Virus record (IMG/VR): IMGVR_UViG_3300047539_000055
Length of the DNA: 64,000 nt
Strand: one strand, 5' to 3'
DNA from: a virus
Lineage: Duplodnaviria > Caudoviricetes
The notes below the pieces were generated by a model, which saw only the letters and a program-made list of their open reading frames with translations, did not search any database and was not told where the DNA came from. The translations under genes and the position numbers were made by a program. This document shows, in pieces, positions 15,741-55,046 of the stretch; the first letter of the stretch is position 1, and every line of letters begins with the position of its first letter.

Positions 15741-16238
15741 ATGGCAAACCCATTGATAAAAAAGGCAGTAATAACAAAAAAAGGATTTTTTAGAGTTAGA
15801 AGCGAAGCAAGCCTTTGTGGACACTTCTTACACCCCCAAAAAGGAATTACAACAGGAAATTCAAAATATGGAACACATAAGGTAGCAGTTTCTATTGCGC
15901 TTGATGGTAAGTATGATGATGATCAAATTGCGTTTGCCGCCGCTTGCGAAAGTTTTGAGTATAGTGGACGCTCTGGATATGCTTCAAAGGGTACAAAGCA
16001 GATCAAAGATCAAATTTGGAACACTGATAACAACGCACTGCGAGAATCTCGTGAGCAAAATTTTCCTATCAGCGTTTTTGTGGCGGAATGGGATGAGAAT
16101 GGTAAAAAGTTGGGATATCAACTTTTACCAGACAATTATTATGTTTGGGAAATAAAAGATGGCAATGTTGATGGTGTTACTCTTAATCCTCAAACTGGAC
16201 ATGCACAAATCAAGTTTGTTTTGAAACCTGGCAAGTGA
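15741..16238 (+). CDS. Stand-alone SRA/YDG-like domain protein (putative 5mC reader)
   Basis: HPQKGI, AVSIALDGKYDDD, FEYSGRSG, QIKDQ, NNAL, PISV match SRA core pattern; no nuclease domain attached. Confidence 0.7.
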   Translation: MANPLIKKAVITKKGFFRVRSEASLCGHFLHPQKGITTGNSKYGTHKVAVSIALDGKYDDDQIAFAAACESFEYSGRSGYASKGTKQIKDQIWNTDNNALRESREQNFPISVFVAEWDENGKKLGYQLLPDNYYVWEIKDGNVDGVTLNPQTGHAQIKFVLKPGK

Positions 16239-16976: not shown

Positions 16977-17480
16977 ATGATTCTAAAAATTGTCAAATAC
17001 CCCGATCCAATTCTCTCCCAAGTCGGAGAAGCTATCACTGAATTCAATGCGGATTTACATACGCTGATAGCCGACTTGTTTGAAACCACCTATGCCAATC
17101 AAGGTATTGGTTTATCAGCACATCAAGTAGGCATAGCAAAGCGTGTGGCTGTAATTGATATCAGTAGAGGCGAGAGTTCCGCAGACAAATTAGTACTTAT
17201 CAATCCTGAGATTATTTTCAAAGAAAGATTTATGTATGAAGAAGAAGGATGTCTCAGCTTCTCCCCAGATATTCGTGAAAAAATTGTTCGCTATGCCAAA
17301 GTAACGGTTCGCTCTCAGAATGAACAAGGCGAGTGGTTTGAGATGGACGGTGAAAATCTATTGTCAAGGGCGATGCAACACGAGATAGACCACCTTGATG
17401 GAATATTGTTTATTTTTCGTATGAGTTCTCTCAAGCGCAATCTTAATATGCGTAAAATTCGCAAGATGCAACAGAAATGA
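16977..17480 (+). CDS. def: Peptide deformylase
   Basis: GIGLSAHQVG, EGCLS, QHEIDHLDG. Confidence 0.95.
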   Translation: MILKIVKYPDPILSQVGEAITEFNADLHTLIADLFETTYANQGIGLSAHQVGIAKRVAVIDISRGESSADKLVLINPEIIFKERFMYEEEGCLSFSPDIREKIVRYAKVTVRSQNEQGEWFEMDGENLLSRAMQHEIDHLDGILFIFRMSSLKRNLNMRKIRKMQQK

Positions 17481-17483
17481 CTT

Positions 17484-18518
17484 ATGGAATCCGCACTACA
17501 AACTCGCGATTCGTTCCGCAATGGAGTCTTCCAGCGCGATAAGAATTTGTGTGTCATTTGTGGCAAAGCAGGGCAAGATGCCCATCACATTATGGAAAGA
17601 CGACTTTTCCCTGATGGTGGATATTATTTTGATAACGGTGCTGTCGTTTGCGGCGAGTGTCATATCAAAGCTGAACAAACCTTAATCACAACTGAAGAAT
17701 TGAGAGAAGCGATTGGCATTGAAACTGTCATTCTTCCGCCACATTTGTATCCAGATCAACGATACGATAAATGGGGAAATCCAATTATTGACAATGGAAT
17801 GAGACTTCGTGGAGAACTTTTCGAGGATGTAAGTGTTCAGAAAGTTCTTGCGCCTGTTCTACATTTGTTTTCTTACAAGGTAAAATATCCGCGTACATTT
17901 CACTTACCTTGGAGTCCTGGCGCAACTAAAGATGACAGAATGCTTTCAACGGATGTTGTTGACTCTTGGAATTGGGAAGTGGTTATAACCGAGAAAATGG
18001 ATGGAGAAAATACTACCCTATACAAAAATGATTTACACGCGAGAAGTCTTGACTACGAACCACATCCAAGCCGTAATAAGATCAAGGCACTCCATAGTCA
18101 GATTGGATACAATATTCCGGATAATTGGAGAATCTGTGTAGAAAACCTGACAGCGGTTCACTCAATCAAATATATGAATTTACCTTCTATCTGTGCTGTG
18201 TTTAGCATATGGGATGGATGCAGTTGTATGAGTTGGGATGATACTGTTACGTTTGCTCAGGTGTTGAACTTGGATACCGTGCCTGTTATTTGGCGCGGAA
18301 TGTGGAATCAATTTGACAGCGAATCTTTTGGGTTGAATTTAGCTAAACAGCTTGATACTATCAAACAAGAAGGGTATGTCATTCGTCCAGCCGCATCGTT
18401 TCAGTTCAAAGATTTCCGAACTATGGTTGGCAAGTATGTTCGCGCCAAACACGTACAAACTCATGGACATTGGATGCGCCAAAAAATAGATTTCAATATT
18501 GTCAATCCTATGCTATAA
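17484..18518 (+). CDS. HNH domain fused to ATP-dependent RNA ligase (Rnl2-like)
   Basis: N-term CVIC..AHHI..NG..C.ECH; ligase KYPRTFHLPWSPG, TEKMDGEN, EGYVIR, KYVR. Confidence 0.8.
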   Translation: MESALQTRDSFRNGVFQRDKNLCVICGKAGQDAHHIMERRLFPDGGYYFDNGAVVCGECHIKAEQTLITTEELREAIGIETVILPPHLYPDQRYDKWGNPIIDNGMRLRGELFEDVSVQKVLAPVLHLFSYKVKYPRTFHLPWSPGATKDDRMLSTDVVDSWNWEVVITEKMDGENTTLYKNDLHARSLDYEPHPSRNKIKALHSQIGYNIPDNWRICVENLTAVHSIKYMNLPSICAVFSIWDGCSCMSWDDTVTFAQVLNLDTVPVIWRGMWNQFDSESFGLNLAKQLDTIKQEGYVIRPAASFQFKDFRTMVGKYVRAKHVQTHGHWMRQKIDFNIVNPML

Positions 18519-28611: not shown

Positions 28612-28815
28612 ATATTCCAGCAGATTTACAAGTAATGTACGATCATTACCTTGATTTGACAGCCAAAAACGGTGAACGAGCGCCAGTGTCTCAAGAGATA
28701 GCCGATCTTATTTTGACGTTGATTGAAAGAATCGCTGAATTGGAAACAGATAGTAAAAACCTAAATTCGTATATTCATTTTGAATGTAGGAGAAACCAAG
28801 CGAAGGAGAATTAAA

Positions 28816-29475
28816 ATGGCATATCTTTTGCCCGATCTTCCATATGCATATAATGCATTGGAACCGCATATTGATGAAGAAACAATGAGATTGCATCATG
28901 ATAAACATCATCAAAATTATGTGGATAAATTGAATGAGGCACTCAAGGATTATCCAAAGTATCAAAAGTATCCAGTTGAAGTCTTGGTTACAAATTGGAA
29001 AAAATTACCGAAGGCAATTCAAGAGGCAGTTCGTAACCAGGGCGGCGGTCATGCAAATCATACTATGTTCTGGACAATTATGAAGAGTGGCGGCGGTAAT
29101 CCAACAGGAGAATTAGCAATACAAATCAATAAAGATTTTGGATCGTTTGACAAATTCCAGAAAAAATTCAATGAAGCAGGAACAAAGTTTTTTGGCTCTG
29201 GTTGGGTTTGGCTTGTGTTTGTCGGAAACAAATTGAGAATTGTTACACTGTCAAATCAGGATAGTCCGTTGACAAATGGTGATTTTCCAATTATGGGAAA
29301 TGATCTTTTTGAACATGCGTATTATTTGAAGTATCATAACAAGCGCGACGAGTATTTGGATGCGTGGTGGAATGTTTTGAATTGGGAGGCTGTAGGGCGT
29401 AGGTATCAGCAAGCAAAGGTAATTGCGGTCAAAAAGCCGATCAAAAATGTCGTTCAAAAACAATTTGGAATTTAG
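28816..29475 (+). CDS. sodA: Fe/Mn superoxide dismutase
   Basis: LPYAYNALEPHID, HHDKHH, GGGHANH, FGSGW, NQD, DLFEHAYYL. Confidence 0.9.
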   Translation: MAYLLPDLPYAYNALEPHIDEETMRLHHDKHHQNYVDKLNEALKDYPKYQKYPVEVLVTNWKKLPKAIQEAVRNQGGGHANHTMFWTIMKSGGGNPTGELAIQINKDFGSFDKFQKKFNEAGTKFFGSGWVWLVFVGNKLRIVTLSNQDSPLTNGDFPIMGNDLFEHAYYLKYHNKRDEYLDAWWNVLNWEAVGRRYQQAKVIAVKKPIKNVVQKQFGI

Positions 29476-30687: not shown

Positions 30688-30773
30688 TGGGATGTAGGAA
30701 AACTGGAAACCCCATCTGACTCTGAATCAGACGCCGTTAGGCACTGAAGGTTCAACTCCTTCCATCCCAGCCA
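30688..30773 (+). tRNA. tRNA-Gln(CTG) with long variable arm
   Basis: TGGGATG/CATCCCA, G73, CCA; TCTGA-CTCTGAA-TCAGA; TTCAA T-loop. Confidence 0.9.
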
Positions 30774-31413: not shown

Positions 31414-31496
31414 GCTACGGTGGCACAGCGGCGACTGCACCTGTTTTGTAAGCAGGAATATAAACACCGGGGGTTCGATTCCCTTCCGTAGCTCCA
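31414..31496 (+). tRNA. tRNA-Thr(TGT), enlarged variable loop
   Basis: GCTACGG/CCGTAGC, CCA; CCTGT-TTTGTAA-GCAGG. Confidence 0.88.
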
Positions 31497-31502
31497 AATT
31501 TT

Positions 31503-31585
31503 GCTACAGTGGTCCAGCGGCGACGACAGCAGTTCCGTAAACTGCCATACAAACATCGGGGGTTCGATTCCCTTCTGTAGCTCCA
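31503..31585 (+). tRNA. tRNA-Thr(CGT), C33, enlarged variable loop
   Basis: GCTACAG/CTGTAGC, CCA; GCAGT-TCCGTAA-ACTGC. Confidence 0.88.
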
Positions 31586-40181: not shown

Positions 40182-40275
40182 AGCCCTATAGTTTAACGGC
40201 AGAACAGCGGCCTTATAACCCGTATTAGCATTAGATAGATGCATTGTCTCAGTTCGAATCTGAGTGGGGCTACCA
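40182..40275 (+). tRNA. tRNA-Ile(TAT) with long variable arm
   Basis: AGCCCTA/TGGGGCT, A73, CCA; loop CTTATAA; V-arm GCATT/GATGC; CTCAG-TTCGAAT-CTGAG. Confidence 0.8.
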
Positions 40276-41321: not shown

Positions 41322-41613
41322 ATACTGTATTTATACATTTTTCTGAATATGATGTAGTGAAGGTTCAAAAAAGGAAACAAATGAAAGTATTTTTATTGCT
41401 ACTCGTTGTATTTGTGGGTTATTACTTTTTGACTTCGTGGATGATTGATTCCCACTATAAAGAGATTGCTCAGCAAGAGCAGTATGTGAAAACACATGGT
41501 TGTACATTGGTAGAGACAATCCCAGTTCGTAGCGTAGGAATGATGGTACACGGAGAAACCGATATTTATAAATGTTCAGATGGAAAGACTATAGTAATAA
41601 ACTAGGTGATGAA

Positions 41614-41949
41614 ATGTCTGACAAGCCGAAGCACTTGCTATTCTCGTTAACCGCAAAAGATTTTGAGTTTCAAACCTTTTGTACTGGTGGACCTGGAGGG
41701 CAACATAAAAACGCGAAACAAAACGGTGTGCGATGCATTCATAAAGAATCAGGCGCAAGGGCGGAACATCGTGACGGAAGGGATCAGTTTAGAAACAAGC
41801 AAGCGGCTTTCGAGAAATGCGCTAACACACCACAGTTCAAGGCATGGCATAAAGTAGAGTGTATGCGTAAACTTGGACAATTGAAAGATATTGAACGAGC
41901 AGTTGATGAAGCCATGGCTGATAGTAATTTGAAAGTTGAGTATTTATAA
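41614..41949 (+). CDS. Stand-alone RF-1 (GGQ) domain protein, ArfB/PrfH-like
   Basis: GGPGGQHKN, VR..H..SG, RDQ..NK..AF. Confidence 0.85.
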   Translation: MSDKPKHLLFSLTAKDFEFQTFCTGGPGGQHKNAKQNGVRCIHKESGARAEHRDGRDQFRNKQAAFEKCANTPQFKAWHKVECMRKLGQLKDIERAVDEAMADSNLKVEYL

Positions 41950-42404: not shown

Positions 42405-43148
42405 ATGAAAATCACTCAGTTCACACAGCAAAATTTACGGAACTATCAGGAGGATCGCGCCTTCGTTAAGCAAATGAATAACGGAGAAGCGTTGCTCGGT
42501 ATGTTTGATGGTCATGGAGGCGATTGGACTTCCGCATTTGCGGCTAAGCACGCTCCGTATATTTTTAAATCCATACACAAGAATTTGAAAGCCACTCCTG
42601 AATTGGCGTTGCAATATTTGTTTCAAAGATTAGCTGATAAGACCCAATTTTATTATGCTGGTTCTACCGCGTGTGTTGTTTGGGTCAAAAAAGATATAGC
42701 ATATGTTGCCACATTGGGTGATAGTCTGGCAATTATTAAAACCGCCAATGATGATATTTGGATTTCTCCAGAACATAATGTGCGAACGAATACAGTAGAA
42801 GTTGATAAAGCTGTGTCGCGTGGCGGCGTTGTTTCTGATGGATATTTGTTTGATAGTAAGGTTTTTCAAGGATCAGGATTACAAATGAGTCGTGCCTTTG
42901 GAGATTCAAATTTATCTCGCGTTCTTGACAGAGAACCAGAAATTTTCTCTATTCCTATCAATGAAAAAAGTTGGATTTTGATTTGTACTGATGGTTTGAT
43001 TGATCCTACTCATGCATCGACTGCATGTTTAGATGTGATGGTTGATATGATCAAAAATCCAAAAGTTACTGCCGAAAATTTAGTTGAGATGGGTGCTACA
43101 TTTCAAAGAGATGACAATTCCACTGCAATCTTGGCAAGAATAGAATAA
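42405..43148 (+). CDS. PP2C-family Ser/Thr phosphatase
   Basis: R.YQED, FDGHGG, GSTA, GDS, SRAFGD, TDGL, DDNST. Confidence 0.9.
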   Translation: MKITQFTQQNLRNYQEDRAFVKQMNNGEALLGMFDGHGGDWTSAFAAKHAPYIFKSIHKNLKATPELALQYLFQRLADKTQFYYAGSTACVVWVKKDIAYVATLGDSLAIIKTANDDIWISPEHNVRTNTVEVDKAVSRGGVVSDGYLFDSKVFQGSGLQMSRAFGDSNLSRVLDREPEIFSIPINEKSWILICTDGLIDPTHASTACLDVMVDMIKNPKVTAENLVEMGATFQRDDNSTAILARIE

Positions 43149-43287: not shown

Positions 43288-44523
43288 ATGACCAAAAATA
43301 ATATACAATGTGCTTTTTGCAACAAGAGTAGAGATGAAAGTCTCAAAATGGTTGTTAGTGGAAGTTTTTCCATATGCGATAAGTGTGTATTTCTTTTTAA
43401 CGATCTTCTCAAAAACACACCAGAAGCAACTACTGCAATAATTCCTGAGAAAAAACATTTAGCCGAACAGCTAGACAGCATAAAGATTCGTAAATTCATT
43501 GATCAATATGTGATTGGACAAGAGCCAGCAAAGATGGCCCTTTGTGTTAGTGTAGTCAATCATTATAAGAGAATGTTGTTTGGTCAGGATAATGATAGTC
43601 TCAATAAAAGCAATCTACTGATTATGGGGCCGAGTGGCAGTGGTAAGAGTTTGTTAGTTAGCACGATTGCTAAGTTTTTAGATGTTCCATTCATTTCTGT
43701 TGATGCCACAACACTCACCGAAGCAGGATATATAGGCCAAAACGTTGATACAATCATTATGAGAATGTTGACAGAAGCAAATGGTGATATTGACGCTGTG
43801 GAAAATGGTATTGTATTTTTGGATGAAGTTGACAAGATTGCTTCAACAAAGAATAGAGTGTCAACAACCGATTCTAAAGTTGCTGGAGTTCAATCAGCAT
43901 TATTGAAAATGGTTGAAGGAACAATAGTTCCTATTGGTTCTGGATTGGATTTCAAAAGAGCAAAGCCTATTGAAGTTGATACATCCAATATTCTTTTCAT
44001 ATGTGGTGGATCGTTCAATGGACTAAATGAAATAGCGGCGGCAAGACTCAAGAAGAAGAAAGGTCTTGGTTTTTCAGATGTAGCTCCCATGATTCAAAAT
44101 ATTGAGTCTGAATATGCTACAGAAGATTTTATTGAATTTGGTTTGATTCCTGAATTTGTGGGGCGTTTTCCTATCAAGACATTTACCAAAGAACTTACTG
44201 AAGAAGAATTGGTTTGCGTTTTGAAAAATGACAAAAACAATATTTTGTCCGAATACAAATTCTATTTTGGTGTGGATGATATCGAATTAGAATTTACAGA
44301 AGGTTTTTTGGAAAAGGTTGCTCATAAAACCAAATTTGAGAAATCTGGTGTACGTGGTCTTCGTTCCCTGTGCGACAATATCATGTTATCCCATTTATAT
44401 TTGATACCAGAATATAAAAAGAGGAATGTAACCAAAGTAACATTTGATGGCGATTGCATAGACAAAAACCAAATACCAAAAATTGAGATTATTGAAAAAA
44501 AGCTTGACAAGAGAGCCAAATAA
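43288..44523 (+). CDS. clpX: ClpX ATPase
   Basis: C4 zinc domain, YVIGQ, NHYKR, GPSGSGKS, LTEAGY, DEVDK, LGF loop, PEFVGR, GVRGLR. Confidence 0.92.
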   Translation: MTKNNIQCAFCNKSRDESLKMVVSGSFSICDKCVFLFNDLLKNTPEATTAIIPEKKHLAEQLDSIKIRKFIDQYVIGQEPAKMALCVSVVNHYKRMLFGQDNDSLNKSNLLIMGPSGSGKSLLVSTIAKFLDVPFISVDATTLTEAGYIGQNVDTIIMRMLTEANGDIDAVENGIVFLDEVDKIASTKNRVSTTDSKVAGVQSALLKMVEGTIVPIGSGLDFKRAKPIEVDTSNILFICGGSFNGLNEIAAARLKKKKGLGFSDVAPMIQNIESEYATEDFIEFGLIPEFVGRFPIKTFTKELTEEELVCVLKNDKNNILSEYKFYFGVDDIELEFTEGFLEKVAHKTKFEKSGVRGLRSLCDNIMLSHLYLIPEYKKRNVTKVTFDGDCIDKNQIPKIEIIEKKLDKRAK

Positions 44524-44572: not shown

Positions 44573-44884
44573 ATGACAGGCGCACAGTGTGAAATTGTAA
44601 CCAAAGTCAAAATCAACACTGATTTGAAACCACCCGCACGATACAGTGTGGTGTATTTCAATGATGAAAAAACAAGTGCCGCGTTTGTGGTTCAATCATT
44701 AGTTGAAGTTTTTGGTTATTCAGTTGATGCCGCAATAGCGTTGACTAAGCAAGTTGATGAGAAAGGTTCTGGAGTTGCCGCATCTGGACTCAATAAAGAA
44801 TTGGCATCTCATTTACGAGATTTGGTTAAATCCAAAGCAGAGGCCGAAGGTTATCCTTTGGTTGTTGAAATCAAGGAAGACTAA
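44573..44884 (+). CDS. clpS: ClpS adaptor-like protein
   Basis: PP.Y.V..ND..T..FV...L..VF, G.G, YPL. Confidence 0.82.
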   Translation: MTGAQCEIVTKVKINTDLKPPARYSVVYFNDEKTSAAFVVQSLVEVFGYSVDAAIALTKQVDEKGSGVAASGLNKELASHLRDLVKSKAEAEGYPLVVEIKED

Positions 44885-46342: not shown

Positions 46343-47086
46343 ATGAAAACGGCAAAAGTGGTTGTTCCATCAATTTCGTATCCGCGTGATTTGGTTTTTG
46401 CAACGGCTTGTGCTGCTCAGCGTATCAATGGCCAATATGTGAAACGTCCGTTTATTCCGTTTAGTCGTTATTATCCTGTTTATGTCCCCGTTGCTAAGAG
46501 GGTTGAACCTAGCGATACAATGTTGTATAATGCGGCTTTGATGAAGTCAATTCTTGCTTCTGATCAAAGTAATATTTTGCCAGAAGATTATGAATATGCT
46601 GAATTGGTTCGCAATTATTATTGCAGTAAGATTGCGTATGTTTTTAGTGGTGAAGCAGGAGATTTTCTCAAGAATGCCGTGGATGCCGCCAGCACAGAAG
46701 AAATTGCAACTGGTGAAAAGTTGTTTGGACTTACCGCATCATTGCCATCTTGTTACGCAAACAATGTCAAGCGTGATTTAGAGCGCAATAATTTGAGGGA
46801 ACTAACGGATAACAGTATTGCTCTTGATGCAGAAATTGGTCAGCTAGTAATTTTGAACGTCAAGATTGTTGATGCGATCTTCAAGGAAAAGTGGCAGTCA
46901 AATGCTGTCAATGCCTTGGTAAACAATGTTTCTGGAAATCGTATGGTCTTTTTCTTTAGCAAGCATTCTTGGACTAAAGGAAACACCTACAATGTTTCTG
47001 GCACTATCAAGAACAAGGGAAATCAGACTACTCAATTGAACAGGGTTACACTATTAGACCCTAGTGGAAAAGAAAAGGATATGTAA
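46343..47086 (+). CDS. Phage hypothetical protein, possible C-terminal OB fold
   Basis: ACAAQRING.Y.K; ..G.IK....TQLNRV end. Confidence 0.55.
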   Translation: MKTAKVVVPSISYPRDLVFATACAAQRINGQYVKRPFIPFSRYYPVYVPVAKRVEPSDTMLYNAALMKSILASDQSNILPEDYEYAELVRNYYCSKIAYVFSGEAGDFLKNAVDAASTEEIATGEKLFGLTASLPSCYANNVKRDLERNNLRELTDNSIALDAEIGQLVILNVKIVDAIFKEKWQSNAVNALVNNVSGNRMVFFFSKHSWTKGNTYNVSGTIKNKGNQTTQLNRVTLLDPSGKEKDM

Positions 47087-48207
47087 TGAAGTTTTTGAAA
47101 GAAATTTTGGACGTGGACTTACTCAATAAGTTGATTGAGGATGGGTTTGTCTCGCGCAAGTTTCACAACGATTATCCGTTGGCGGTTTTGAACTATACCC
47201 CGCAAGCGCAATATGATCCAAATTTGGTTTGGAACACCGAGATGAATTTGTCTCGTGGTCTGGTTTATTGTACTGAAACTGAAAAAATAGTGGCATTAGC
47301 TTTTCCTAAATTTTGGAACATCAACGATACCCGCCATCCTGAAACGATGGAAGAGAATCTTCCTAACGAAATTCCGATGTTATTGGATAAGTTGGATGGT
47401 TCTTTGGGAATAATGTTTGAATGGGATGGTTTGAATCACGTTGCAACTCGTGGCTCTTTTCATTCTGACCAAGCAAATTGGGCAACGAATTGGATTCGTA
47501 CTAAGTATCCGCGTTTGAAGTTGTCTCCCATGTATACTGTACTTTCAGAAATCATTTTCAAGGAAAACAAGATTGTTATTGATTATGATTTTGAAGGTTT
47601 GGTTGTTTTGGGCGTGATCAATATTGATACTGGCCGAGAATTGTCTCGCGATGATTTGAAGCCGTATTGTCGCGCTATGGGTCTGAATTTGGTGCAGGAA
47701 TACAAGAAGTCTCTTTCTGATGCTTTGAAGGAAAACGAAAAGAATCGTGAAGGTTACGTTTTGACTTATCCTTCTACTGGAATCAAGGTCAAGGTGAAGT
47801 TTGAAGAATATGTTCGTCTTCACAAGATTTTGACTGGTCTGAATGTTCATAGCGTATGGGAATTGTTGCGTGATGGTAAGTCTGCAACGATTGATGAATG
47901 GATTGCTGATGCTCGTATGCCCGAAACTTTCAAGGCGTGGGTTTTTGGAGTTCGCCGTGAATTGTGCATAAAGTTTATTGAAATCAATAATATCGCTGTG
48001 AATGCTTTTCAGTCAAAGCCGATACTTGATCAATTTATGCCATACAAGGAATCTCGTAAGAAAATGGCGGCATATTTTACTCAAGAAAAGTATCGTCCGT
48101 ATTCAGGATTGCTGTTTGGATTGCTGGATCACAAGGATATTACTCCTTCAATTTGGAAGATGGTTGAGCCTTCGGGCAATGCTGTTTATCTTGTGGACGG
48201 GGAGTAA
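47086..48207 (+). CDS. T4 Rnl1-like RNA ligase
   Basis: LNY, SRGL, FPKFWN, KLDGS, ATRGSF.S, E, EGYV, KVK..EY..LH. Confidence 0.88.
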   Translation: MKFLKEILDVDLLNKLIEDGFVSRKFHNDYPLAVLNYTPQAQYDPNLVWNTEMNLSRGLVYCTETEKIVALAFPKFWNINDTRHPETMEENLPNEIPMLLDKLDGSLGIMFEWDGLNHVATRGSFHSDQANWATNWIRTKYPRLKLSPMYTVLSEIIFKENKIVIDYDFEGLVVLGVINIDTGRELSRDDLKPYCRAMGLNLVQEYKKSLSDALKENEKNREGYVLTYPSTGIKVKVKFEEYVRLHKILTGLNVHSVWELLRDGKSATIDEWIADARMPETFKAWVFGVRRELCIKFIEINNIAVNAFQSKPILDQFMPYKESRKKMAAYFTQEKYRPYSGLLFGLLDHKDITPSIWKMVEPSGNAVYLVDGE

Positions 48208-53247: not shown

Positions 53248-54238
53248 TGGCAAATGATTTAAAAACTATTTCGTTACCTGATACAATAGGTGTTCCGCTT
53301 AAAGTGGATGATTGGGTTGTATATGCAACAGATGTATTCAATGGTCAGCTACGTGTTGGACAAGTTGCCCGATTCAACGAGAAATCAATCATTGTTAAAC
53401 GAACAAGAGGAAAAAATGTTCGTTTGACAAGTTCACAACTTATCAAAGTTTCAGAAGAACAATTGACACTCTACTAGTTTTCATTATAAATCAATTTTGG
53501 TTTATGACCATACTAGTTGACAAACCCACTAAATAAGAGTAGAATAGAGTAGTAGTCAAAAGTGGGGTGTGAAATGGCGCGATGGTTTGAAGATGAAATT
53601 GCTGATAAGATTCGCACTGCCGAAAATCATGTAATCCTAATTCCTGCGCAAAATCCTGACGCTGGTATTGATATGGTTGATGTGTATGATGGAGTGACAG
53701 GGAAATTTATCGCGGCTGATGTTCCCGAATCGCCAGCGCGAGAGTTCGTTATCATTTGGAATGAATTGGTTGATGCTGGTGACAATACTGAATCTGTAAA
53801 GAAACTCAATCTTGAATGGCTCATTCAAAGCAGAAAGAGATATGGTTGCTAATGAAAAAGCTGAAAACGGAAAATTTTGCAAAATGCTCAATGGCGTTAG
53901 ATTTTATTGACGGATTGAAAAAGAAAAACAAAAAGTGCGAAGGGTATCTAAATTGCACTTCAAATAAAGATTATAGCAAAGTTGAATGGCACGTAACCTA
54001 TAATCCTGAACTTTTGAAAGTTGTAGAAAGGAAGACATAAATGTTTGATAAAGAAGTAAAAGTTGGCGATACGATTTTATTGCAAGGTGATAACGGAGTG
54101 GTAGAAGCTAAAATTCTTAAATGTTCTGCTAATTACAAAGCAGTATTAGTAAGATTTGTAGCAAAGGGATTTTTTGCCCGTCCACAAACCGATATATGGA
54201 AAGAAACTTGCTATATACTTGATTTAGTAAAAGATTGA

Positions 54239-54634
54239 CTATAGAGAAAAGAACTGATTTTCAAAAGTAAATTTTTCTTGAATTTGTTGAGGATTGTATC
54301 GTCCATTTCTTAGCGTAACTTTTTTGTATTCGGCAAGTATTAATTCTGCCCTACGTTTCTTTTTTGGTTCTAATAAAAATGGAGTAATTTGTTCTAAGCA
54401 AGATATGGCAGCATCATAATGAAGTTTCCAAGACCATGATGGTTTGTGATGTTTCTTGTAAATTTTATGTGAACTAATAGAACCACCAAAAGTGGTTTTC
54501 ATAAATTGTAATAGTTCGTAAGTAGTATTTGATATTTCAATAACTGGGTGACGAAAGGTTTCGTTTTTGTTTGCTTTTAAAAGCGAAATACTTCCCTCAC
54601 CATCAATTAAACCAGCAGCGTAAGCATTTTTCAT
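54239..54634 (-). CDS. Single-motif LAGLIDADG homing endonuclease
   Basis: YAAGLIDGEGSI; ..P.L..KK.RA; late promoter CTAAATA upstream. Confidence 0.88.
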   Translation of the reverse strand: MKNAYAAGLIDGEGSISLLKANKNETFRHPVIEISNTTYELLQFMKTTFGGSISSHKIYKKHHKPSWSWKLHYDAAISCLEQITPFLLEPKKKRRAELILAEYKKVTLRNGRYNPQQIQEKFTFENQFFSL

Positions 54635-54696
54635 AAATGTTCTCCGTTGTATTTAGCCGAACAAGTGGTATTTATACCCCTTGTCCTAAAATAAAA

Positions 54697-55036
54697 AGCT
54701 TAACAGTCGAAAGACTGAAACGCTCGTGAAAGGAGACAACCTCTATATATATTCGGACGTGACTAGCATTATGTCACCGGATCCACCAAATTTTTGATTT
54801 ATGTTTAGACACGAATTGTCTATACGGGTCCGACAAGATTCGACGGGTATATAAACGGGAAGTTACGAGCCAGGTTGTGGTACTCGCCCCTGTAAAAAGG
54901 AGAGAACTATTTATAATCGCTAACTCTGTTAACGATGGCACGGAAGTTTACACACACAGTGTAAAAATCCGTGTGCCAGTAATGGCGTAAGCCAGTACTC
55001 CGCAGCGTGGCCCCGACTGTGTAAAAGAAACGGGGC
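54697..55036 (+). ncRNA. ssrA: Circularly permuted (two-piece) tmRNA
   Basis: 3' acceptor half GAC-GTGAC/GTCAC-CGGATCC-ACCA (ends 54788) lies upstream of 5' half GGGTCCGA..GATTCGAC (starts 54826); G3-U70; tag frame 54919-54990 ANSVNDGTEVYTHSVKIRVPVMA*; outer ends approximate. Confidence 0.85.
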
Positions 55037-55046
55037 AACTACTTTT

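Follow-up and report, generated by a model that had tools for sequence, protein, structure and literature searches.

A predicted two-piece tmRNA of an uncultured jumbo phage and its virus-restricted T-loop class

Do phages that carry tmRNA genes only take over ribosome rescue as it is, or do they redirect it? The question is made testable by a locus at positions 54697-55036 of the stretch of DNA analysed here (64,000 nt from a member of Caudoviricetes, IMG/VR record IMGVR_UViG_3300047539_000055; called the window below), where a tmRNA gene with a hairpin in its tag and a non-AA tag end shares the window with a phage ClpX whose substrate loop is altered. In our reading, which we hold to be probably correct, the locus is a functional ssrA gene for the two-piece tmRNA of an uncultured jumbo phage and belongs to a virus-restricted branch of the alpha/beta type. 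New here are a T-loop class restricted to viruses in which the D-loop has changed to match, the failure of ARAGORN to see this class, and, in the window member, a long tag that contains a conserved hairpin and does not end in AA.

Layout, detection and elbow of the permuted gene

A first-pass annotation, made from the letters alone, had described the locus as a phage-encoded circularly permuted tmRNA gene and had proposed an Infernal search with a permuted model as a check. Both the description and the check held: the Rfam permuted-tmRNA model RF04321 matches 54722-54990 on the plus strand over the full model (1-213) at 48.6 bits (E 1.7e-6 for a search of all 64 kb), a score that barely exceeds the gathering cut-off of 47, and an independent class model (R1, see below) gives 85.9 bits. 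A coding reading of the locus was rejected, as no plus-strand ORF of at least 40 aa overlaps 54697-55036.

All parts of the gene lie on the plus strand, and the elements listed in the annotation were recovered in the order it gave, with the CCA-bearing 3' half upstream of the 5' half and a 37-nt spacer between them (CCA at 54786-54788, G1 at 54826). The acceptor piece, or 3' tRNA-like half (54722-54788), was delimited by the RF04321 alignment, class model R1, and a covariation count. It contains the sequence CGGAC (54754-54758) before the T-stem, the T-stem itself (GTGAC 54759-54763 with GTCAC 54773-54777), a T-loop of 9 nt as annotated (TAGCATTAT, 54764-54772), and the acceptor 3' strand CGGATCC (54778-54784), followed by discriminator A73 at 54785 and the encoded CCA. 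The start of the coding piece (54826-54870), placed by the RF04321 alignment, covariation, and the elbow comparison, carries the acceptor 5' strand GGGTCCG (54826-54832) and a D-loop analogue, ACAAGAUUCGAC, which has AG instead of GG. The acceptor stem is paired at 7/7 positions, with G3 facing U70. Both annotated inter-piece pairings are present, an outer helix of 8 bp (GCTCGTGA 54722-54729 with TTACGAGC 54863-54870) and an inner helix of 9 bp (TATATATTC 54746-54754 with GGGTATATA 54845-54853).

Downstream of the tRNA-like domain, alignment to RF00023 and RF04321 places a PK1-like region at 54871-54918, with a hairpin formed by CAGG (54871-54874) and CCUG (54889-54892) and a possible second stem, UACUCGC/GAGAGAA, in which 5/7 pairs could form; a PK1 pseudoknot is predicted at 54871-54918, a region over which a close twin contig (L133, see below) is identical. 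The resume-codon leader ..UAUAAUC closes this region ahead of the GCU at 54919, from which the tag reading frame (54919-54990) runs for 23 codons, ANSVNDGTEVYTHSVKIRVPVMA, to a UAA stop at 54988-54990. The annotation was also right that the tag ends in VMA rather than LAA and folds into a long hairpin (-43.3 kcal/mol, z -3.6). The hairpin inside the frame (54937-54977), seen in the RF04321 alignment, in folding, and in the comparison with L133, corresponds to 30 nt inserted in frame that the family consensus lacks; it occurs once in the window and is not a repeated element. Helix 5 (54978-54999; folding and L133 comparison) holds the stop codon in its GUAA loop, and a 3' terminal hairpin, GCCCCG...CGGGGC (55010-55036), follows, whose folded stem is kept in L133 and whose loop has fully diverged. 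This hairpin is probably either a terminator or the 3' end of the coding piece; a simple terminator scan did not call it because its loop is longer than 8 nt. At the other end of the gene, an upstream leader (54697-54721) bears a small hairpin, CAGUC-GAAA-GACUG (54704-54717), and is identical in L133. It may be either part of the mature acceptor piece or a promoter-proximal leader, and a promoter scan upstream of the gene found no convincing sigma-70 promoter. The spacer (54789-54825) forms the small hairpin that had been noticed, TAGACA/TGTCTA, though it is weak (-5.3 kcal/mol, z -1.8); the spacers of relatives are 38-96 nt long and have no sequence kinship to it.

Processing, charging, and tagging are predicted from the sequence as follows. 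A single rightward transcript would begin near 54700 and reach as far as the hairpin at 55010-55036. From this precursor, host tRNA-processing enzymes would produce G1 54826 by an RNase P-type cut and the 3' end of the acceptor piece by trimming back to the CCA at 54788, so that the 37-nt spacer would be released and lost on maturation while the two pieces would stay together through the acceptor stem and the two inter-piece helices. Host AlaRS would charge the RNA via G3.U70 and A73, and the RNA, with SmpB (probably that of the host) and EF-Tu, would enter stalled ribosomes, where translation would resume at GCU 54919 and add the tag until the stop in the helix 5 loop.

ARAGORN, the other search that had been proposed, did not bear the annotation out: on the window it called 7 tRNAs and no tmRNA. 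Scanning IMG/VR for the structural pattern yielded many permuted tmRNAs of viruses, and those with perfect acceptor and T-stems have T-loops of the classes TTCRAnT, GGCAGTR, TATCGTAn, and TAGCAT(T)AT, the last of which includes the window gene. Further viral two-piece tmRNAs whose T-loop differs from 7 nt in length lie on L084, L100, and L092, with the loops TATCGTAG and TATCGTAT (8 nt) and TTCGAC (6 nt). ARAGORN called 5/5 tested viral permuted tmRNAs with 7-nt T-loops and 0/12 of those with 6-, 8-, or 9-nt T-loops, which comprise the window gene, eight TAGCAT loci, L084, L100, and the viral two-piece tmRNA of L092; its T-loop length rule is the likely explanation for the miss in the window. 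Two of the missed genes are TATCGTAn members that are also real, scoring 97 bits (L084:1987-2221, on a 378-kb contig) and 83 bits (L100:160-391) with RF04321. Members of the GGCAGTR class type as alpha (L055, 115.8 bits) or beta (L101, 107.5 bits). Since phage-borne tmRNAs have been counted almost wholly by ARAGORN, and since it found none of the 12 genes with non-7-nt T-loops, translation-gene surveys of large phages probably undercount two-piece tmRNAs.

Within the tmRNA clan, the window gene lies below the gathering cut-offs of the alpha (RF01849, 50 bits) and beta (RF01850, 84 bits) clade models. The best clan member shown is the standard one-piece model, which aligns the 5' half including the resume-codon context at 28.5 bits, so the alpha, beta, and cyano scores must be lower than that. 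Model R1, built from the viral UAGCAU(U)AU class without the window or its twin L133, scores the window at 85.9 bits (E 3e-21); with non-class viral permuted tmRNAs it gives at most 68 bits for the TATCGTAT class and 25-52 for all others.

The window gene lacks the canonical T-Psi-C loop of 7 nt (UUCRAnU) with its G53-C61 closing pair, and its T-stem closes with C-G. In the TAGCAT class generally, a U..A spacing like that of U54/A58 is kept and the G53-C61 closing pair is lost. Canonical T-loops go together with a D-loop GG in 17/17 distinct viral permuted tmRNAs, whereas the D-loop has AG in 6/6 of the TAGCAT class and 10/11 of the GGCAGTR class, and both AG classes have a GCA core in common. 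As the D-loop partner co-varies with the T-loop (GG to AG), the elbow has been rebuilt and has not decayed, and sequence comparison marks the 9-nt T-loop and its AG D-loop as an alternative elbow shared by the whole lineage rather than as damage. We know of no demonstration of function for a UAGCAU(U)AU-type elbow. Because T-loop and D-loop change together, the class offers a natural test of which changes of a tmRNA elbow are still compatible with function.

The tag and its possible partners

A scan of about 50 ORFs of the window found no SmpB, and the one complete relative (96 kb, with terminal repeats) has none either, which makes host SmpB the expected partner of the RNA. Other genes of the window may bear on what becomes of tagged proteins. 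A phage ClpX is encoded at 43288-44523 on the plus strand (Pfam zf-C4_ClpX and AAA_2; NCBIfam equivalog at 398.2 bits versus 359). It retains the Zn finger, the Walker motifs, the pore-1 loop GYIG, and the ClpP-docking loop LGF. In E. coli ClpX the C-terminus of ssrA is contacted by the RKH loop; the phage protein does not conserve this loop and has LDF..KRAK aligned to it. The gene adjoins one for ClpS (44573-44884, plus strand, Pfam 60.6 bits), and no ClpP was seen in the window. A stand-alone GGQ (RF-1 domain) protein of 125 aa is encoded at 41572-41949 on the plus strand (Pfam RF-1, 41.7 bits versus 35); its GGQ catalytic motif is present and an ArfB-type basic tail is absent, and its best NCBIfam match, below the cut-off, is the GGQ domain of PrfH (release factor H), a partner of RtcB-type RNA repair. 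Besides this GGQ protein, the window also has two RNA ligases (17484-18518 and 47086-48207).

The annotation had suggested that tagged proteins might be sent to a different proteolytic fate. A phage-directed fate is conceivable in view of the genes for ClpX, ClpS, and the GGQ factor. In its explicit form, in which the tmRNA is functional and its tag would be read by the phage ClpX (with ClpS) rather than by host ClpXP/SspB, or would mark proteins without degradation, we consider it rather unlikely. It would fit the tag ends (V-M-A in the window, V-L-A in L133, and M-V-A in L120, against AA in the other viral tags that could be read), as well as a ClpX that keeps its pore-1 and ClpP-docking loops and lacks the RKH loop, and the location of the ClpX, ClpS, and GGQ genes 10-13 kb from the tmRNA gene. 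However, several host proteases accept nonpolar C-termini as generic degrons, the physical proximity is loose, the window shows no ClpP of its own, and most class members have ordinary ..LAA tags with no sign of a linked ClpX. Class tags include ANDETFALAA, ANDSVYALAA, ANDDYFYQDLKLAA, ANEFAMAAAA, and ANEETLAMEAAA, and also ANDSQFRMVA. A broader version, unlikely in our view, is that the virus-only elbow, the non-AA hairpin tag, and the phage's own ClpX and ClpS, with the RKH loop replaced, might together make up a circuit for tagging and degradation that is under phage control and distinct from the host's, with an RNA that is in part orthogonal to host factors or withstands a host nuclease or defence directed at tRNA-like elbows.

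Selection on the RNA and on the tag

The twin of the locus is carried by a metagenome contig (L133, OBLT010055919.1) whose flanks are about 95% identical to the window. Divergence between the two is 3.0% over 54226-54696, only 0.4% over 54697-54942 (1/246; P = 2e-4 at the 4.4% flank rate), 22.9% over 54943-54990, and 41% over 54991-55046. The L133 tag, ANSVNDGTKIYTHSVKVRELVLA, has 23 codons and the same stop is kept. Within 54937-54999, 14 changes are found in L133, six of which make up three covarying pairs and one of which turns G-C into G.U, the remainder being six unpaired changes and one that opens a loop-closing pair. The tag hairpin shows a compensatory change from G-C to A-U at 54943/54969 and the change from G-C to G.U at 54937/54977, and in helix 5 an A-U pair becomes U-A at 54981/54996 and an A.G mismatch becomes U-A at 54982/54995. 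Because of these compensatory changes, the in-frame hairpin and helix 5 can be regarded as conserved RNA structures. As 6/15 distal tag residues differ between the window and L133, the comparison supports selection on the peptide, as distinct from the RNA helices, only as far as the frame, its length, the final Ala, and a hydrophobic end. Comparison of the two sequences indicates that the window tmRNA gene is under purifying selection, which is seen here alongside its architecture, covariation, and class membership.

These data also bear on the idea that the RNA is mainly a decoy or inhibitor, which would titrate host SmpB or EF-Tu or compete with host tmRNA and so might block or reroute host trans-translation, by analogy with the TLD-only RNA of DS6A. 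A TLD-only RNA that inhibits in this way has been described (PMC4131195, PMC11915505), conservation within the gene is highest in the tRNA-like part, and an altered elbow might impair normal function. We nevertheless think this quite unlikely, because the resume-codon leader, the 23-codon frame, and the helix-5 stop are kept relative to L133 at 23-41% local divergence, with compensatory changes in the helices of the coding piece, and a pure decoy needs none of them.

Up to 54943, a position within the tag frame, the window and L133 are about 95-99% identical; at that point the identity falls sharply to about 76%. The tmRNA gene sits between a free-standing LAGLIDADG endonuclease gene on the minus strand (54239-54634), directly upstream, and small plus-strand ORFs, and the identity break at 54943 could mark a gene-conversion tract driven by a homing endonuclease. 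Further upstream, a 204-nt stretch (54022-54225, most of a 65-aa ORF at 54041-54238) is present in the window and missing in the otherwise 94.5%-identical L133.

Origin of the permutation and comparison with known systems

The UAGCAU(U)AU T-loop occurs at 14 other viral loci of about seven distinct types, all on uncultured viral contigs, and class members differ in their stems and spacers. The class pattern consists of CGGAC, a 5-bp stem, the UAGCAU(U)AU loop, the returning stem strand, a 7-nt strand, and ACCA, plus the D-loop AGAUUCGAC; the window gene was assigned to the class by its R1 model score. All class loci lie above the RF04321 cut-off (50-108 bits), one passes the beta_tmRNA model (L121, 101.9 bits versus 84), and two pass alpha_tmRNA (L129, 65.2 bits; L012, 59.9 bits). 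In 185,579 prokaryote species genomes (one each), the pattern found no tmRNA and gave two chance matches, which lie inside a coding region and have no stems and no 5' half. Six class representatives including the window had no nucleotide match among 50,697 deposited phages, in a search that works, as a canonical-loop control returned 51 deposited-phage matches. An exact 22-mer from the window had no match in IMG/VR.

In the tRNA-like domain, 15 pairs compared across the class and the window are formed in 99.3% of cells, with double-sided changes at 8/15 pairs and a covariation score of 0.498 against 0.121 in shuffles (reached by 0/500). G3.U70 is invariant in 10/10 class sequences while three neighbouring pairs covary, and the TLD-proximal 3 bp of the inter-piece helices are backed by covariation across the class.

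The annotation had also proposed that the permutation arose independently in a phage. This part was not supported, since about seven divergent viral tmRNAs with different stems share the permuted order, the derived T-loop, and the D-loop change. The consensus T-loop of the beta model is the canonical UUCGAUU, and UAGCAUUAU can thus be taken as the derived state. That a one-piece tmRNA was permuted independently and recently within this phage is therefore very improbable. No cellular or cultured-phage relative of the exact gene was found, and the standard one-piece model aligns to it in part, as such an origin might predict. However, that 28.5-bit match spans only the 5' half, which is common to all tmRNAs, class members pass the beta or alpha two-piece models, and the class model gives the window the high score reported above. 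The most consistent placement, judged from these comparisons, is that the window gene belongs to a virus-restricted branch of alpha/beta-type two-piece tmRNAs. That the locus is a decaying relic, either a pseudogene or an attachment-site fragment left after integration in a host ssrA, is scarcely credible: ssrA fragments derived from integration sites are frequent in phages (PMC9004378) and the Rfam score is marginal, but both halves are complete with all stems intact, only one change is seen over 246 nt where the flanks diverge by 4.4%, compensatory changes are present, and no integrase lies nearby.

Compared with the two-piece tmRNAs of Alpha- and Betaproteobacteria (RF01849 and RF01850, merged in the published permuted-tmRNA Rfam model RF04321; PMC11915505), the window gene has the same order of acceptor piece, spacer, and coding piece, the same 7-bp acceptor stem with G3.U70, inter-piece helices, and a single PK1-like region, and it shares the Ala resume codon, the ..AUAAUC leader, and the helix-5 stop codon. 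It differs in that their T-loop UUCGAUU and D-loop GG are replaced by the 9-nt loop and AG, that their T-stem closes with G-C, and that their tags end in AA whereas the window has 23 codons, a 30-nt in-frame hairpin, and a VMA end. Moreover, the UAGCAU(U)AU class was found in none of the cellular species genomes searched. Alpha/beta permuted tmRNAs are sporadic in MAGs of unrelated phyla (PMC11915505, Supplementary Table S2), with alpha and beta counts of 18 and 23 in Bacteroidota, 15 and 5 in Patescibacteria, 9 and 1 in Thermoplasmatota, and 2 and 3 in Nanoarchaeota; phage contigs binned into MAGs could explain these occurrences. Viruses are not broken down separately in the supplement of the 2025 tmRNA database.

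Two-piece tmRNAs in phages have been published, accounting for 53/133 unique phage tmRNAs found by ARAGORN, and are encoded by OM43 phage Melnitz and by pelagimyophages (PMC9004378). In these large T4-like lytic phages the permuted ssrA is carried along with tRNA genes, as here, and use with host SmpB is presumed, as it would be here; the published genes were found by ARAGORN, whereas the window gene is missed by it. Huge phages are known to have tmRNA and SmpB genes (Al-Shayeb et al. 2020, PMC7162821), from a survey that relied on ARAGORN and did not describe T-loop variants. The window shares their translation-gene-rich jumbo setting, with 7 tRNAs, a peptide deformylase, the GGQ factor, and RNA ligases, and differs from them in that no SmpB was found in its scanned ORFs. 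The tmRNAs of mycobacteriophages (Bxz1 group) and the TLD-only RNA of DS6A (PMC4131195) are likewise phage-borne ssrA-type genes, but they are one-piece or have no tag frame, whereas the window gene is permuted with a conserved tag frame.

As to genome context, blastn/megablast of the tmRNA gene and of a 10-kb flank against the 50,697 deposited phages gave no match, and the nearest cultured-phage proteins found by tblastn with Rnl1 and ClpX are at most 41% identical. As these relatives are only distant, we draw no host inference. The window encodes a NAD ligase, a ribonucleotide reductase, the two RNA ligases, a collagen-like tail fibre, and 7 tRNAs, and further a peptide deformylase, an HD_4 protein, an Fe/Mn SOD, and a PP2C phosphatase. 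Its auxiliary genes lie at 541-1050, 15741-16238, 16977-17480, 28780-29475, and 42405-43148, the set comprising HD_4 (ppGpp-hydrolase-type), SAD/SRA, peptide deformylase, Fe/Mn superoxide dismutase, and PP2C phosphatase.

Four of the 7 phage tRNAs (Gln, two Thr, and Ile-UAU; 30688-30773, 31414-31496, 31503-31585, and 40182-40275) are 83-94 nt long, which is unusual for these identities, and the Ile-UAU tRNA carries 21 inserted nt between its anticodon and T arms. On the L100 contig, which carries one of the variant two-piece tmRNAs, a group I intron (RF00028, 69.3 bits) was observed at L100:5544-5735 within an array of 20 tRNAs.
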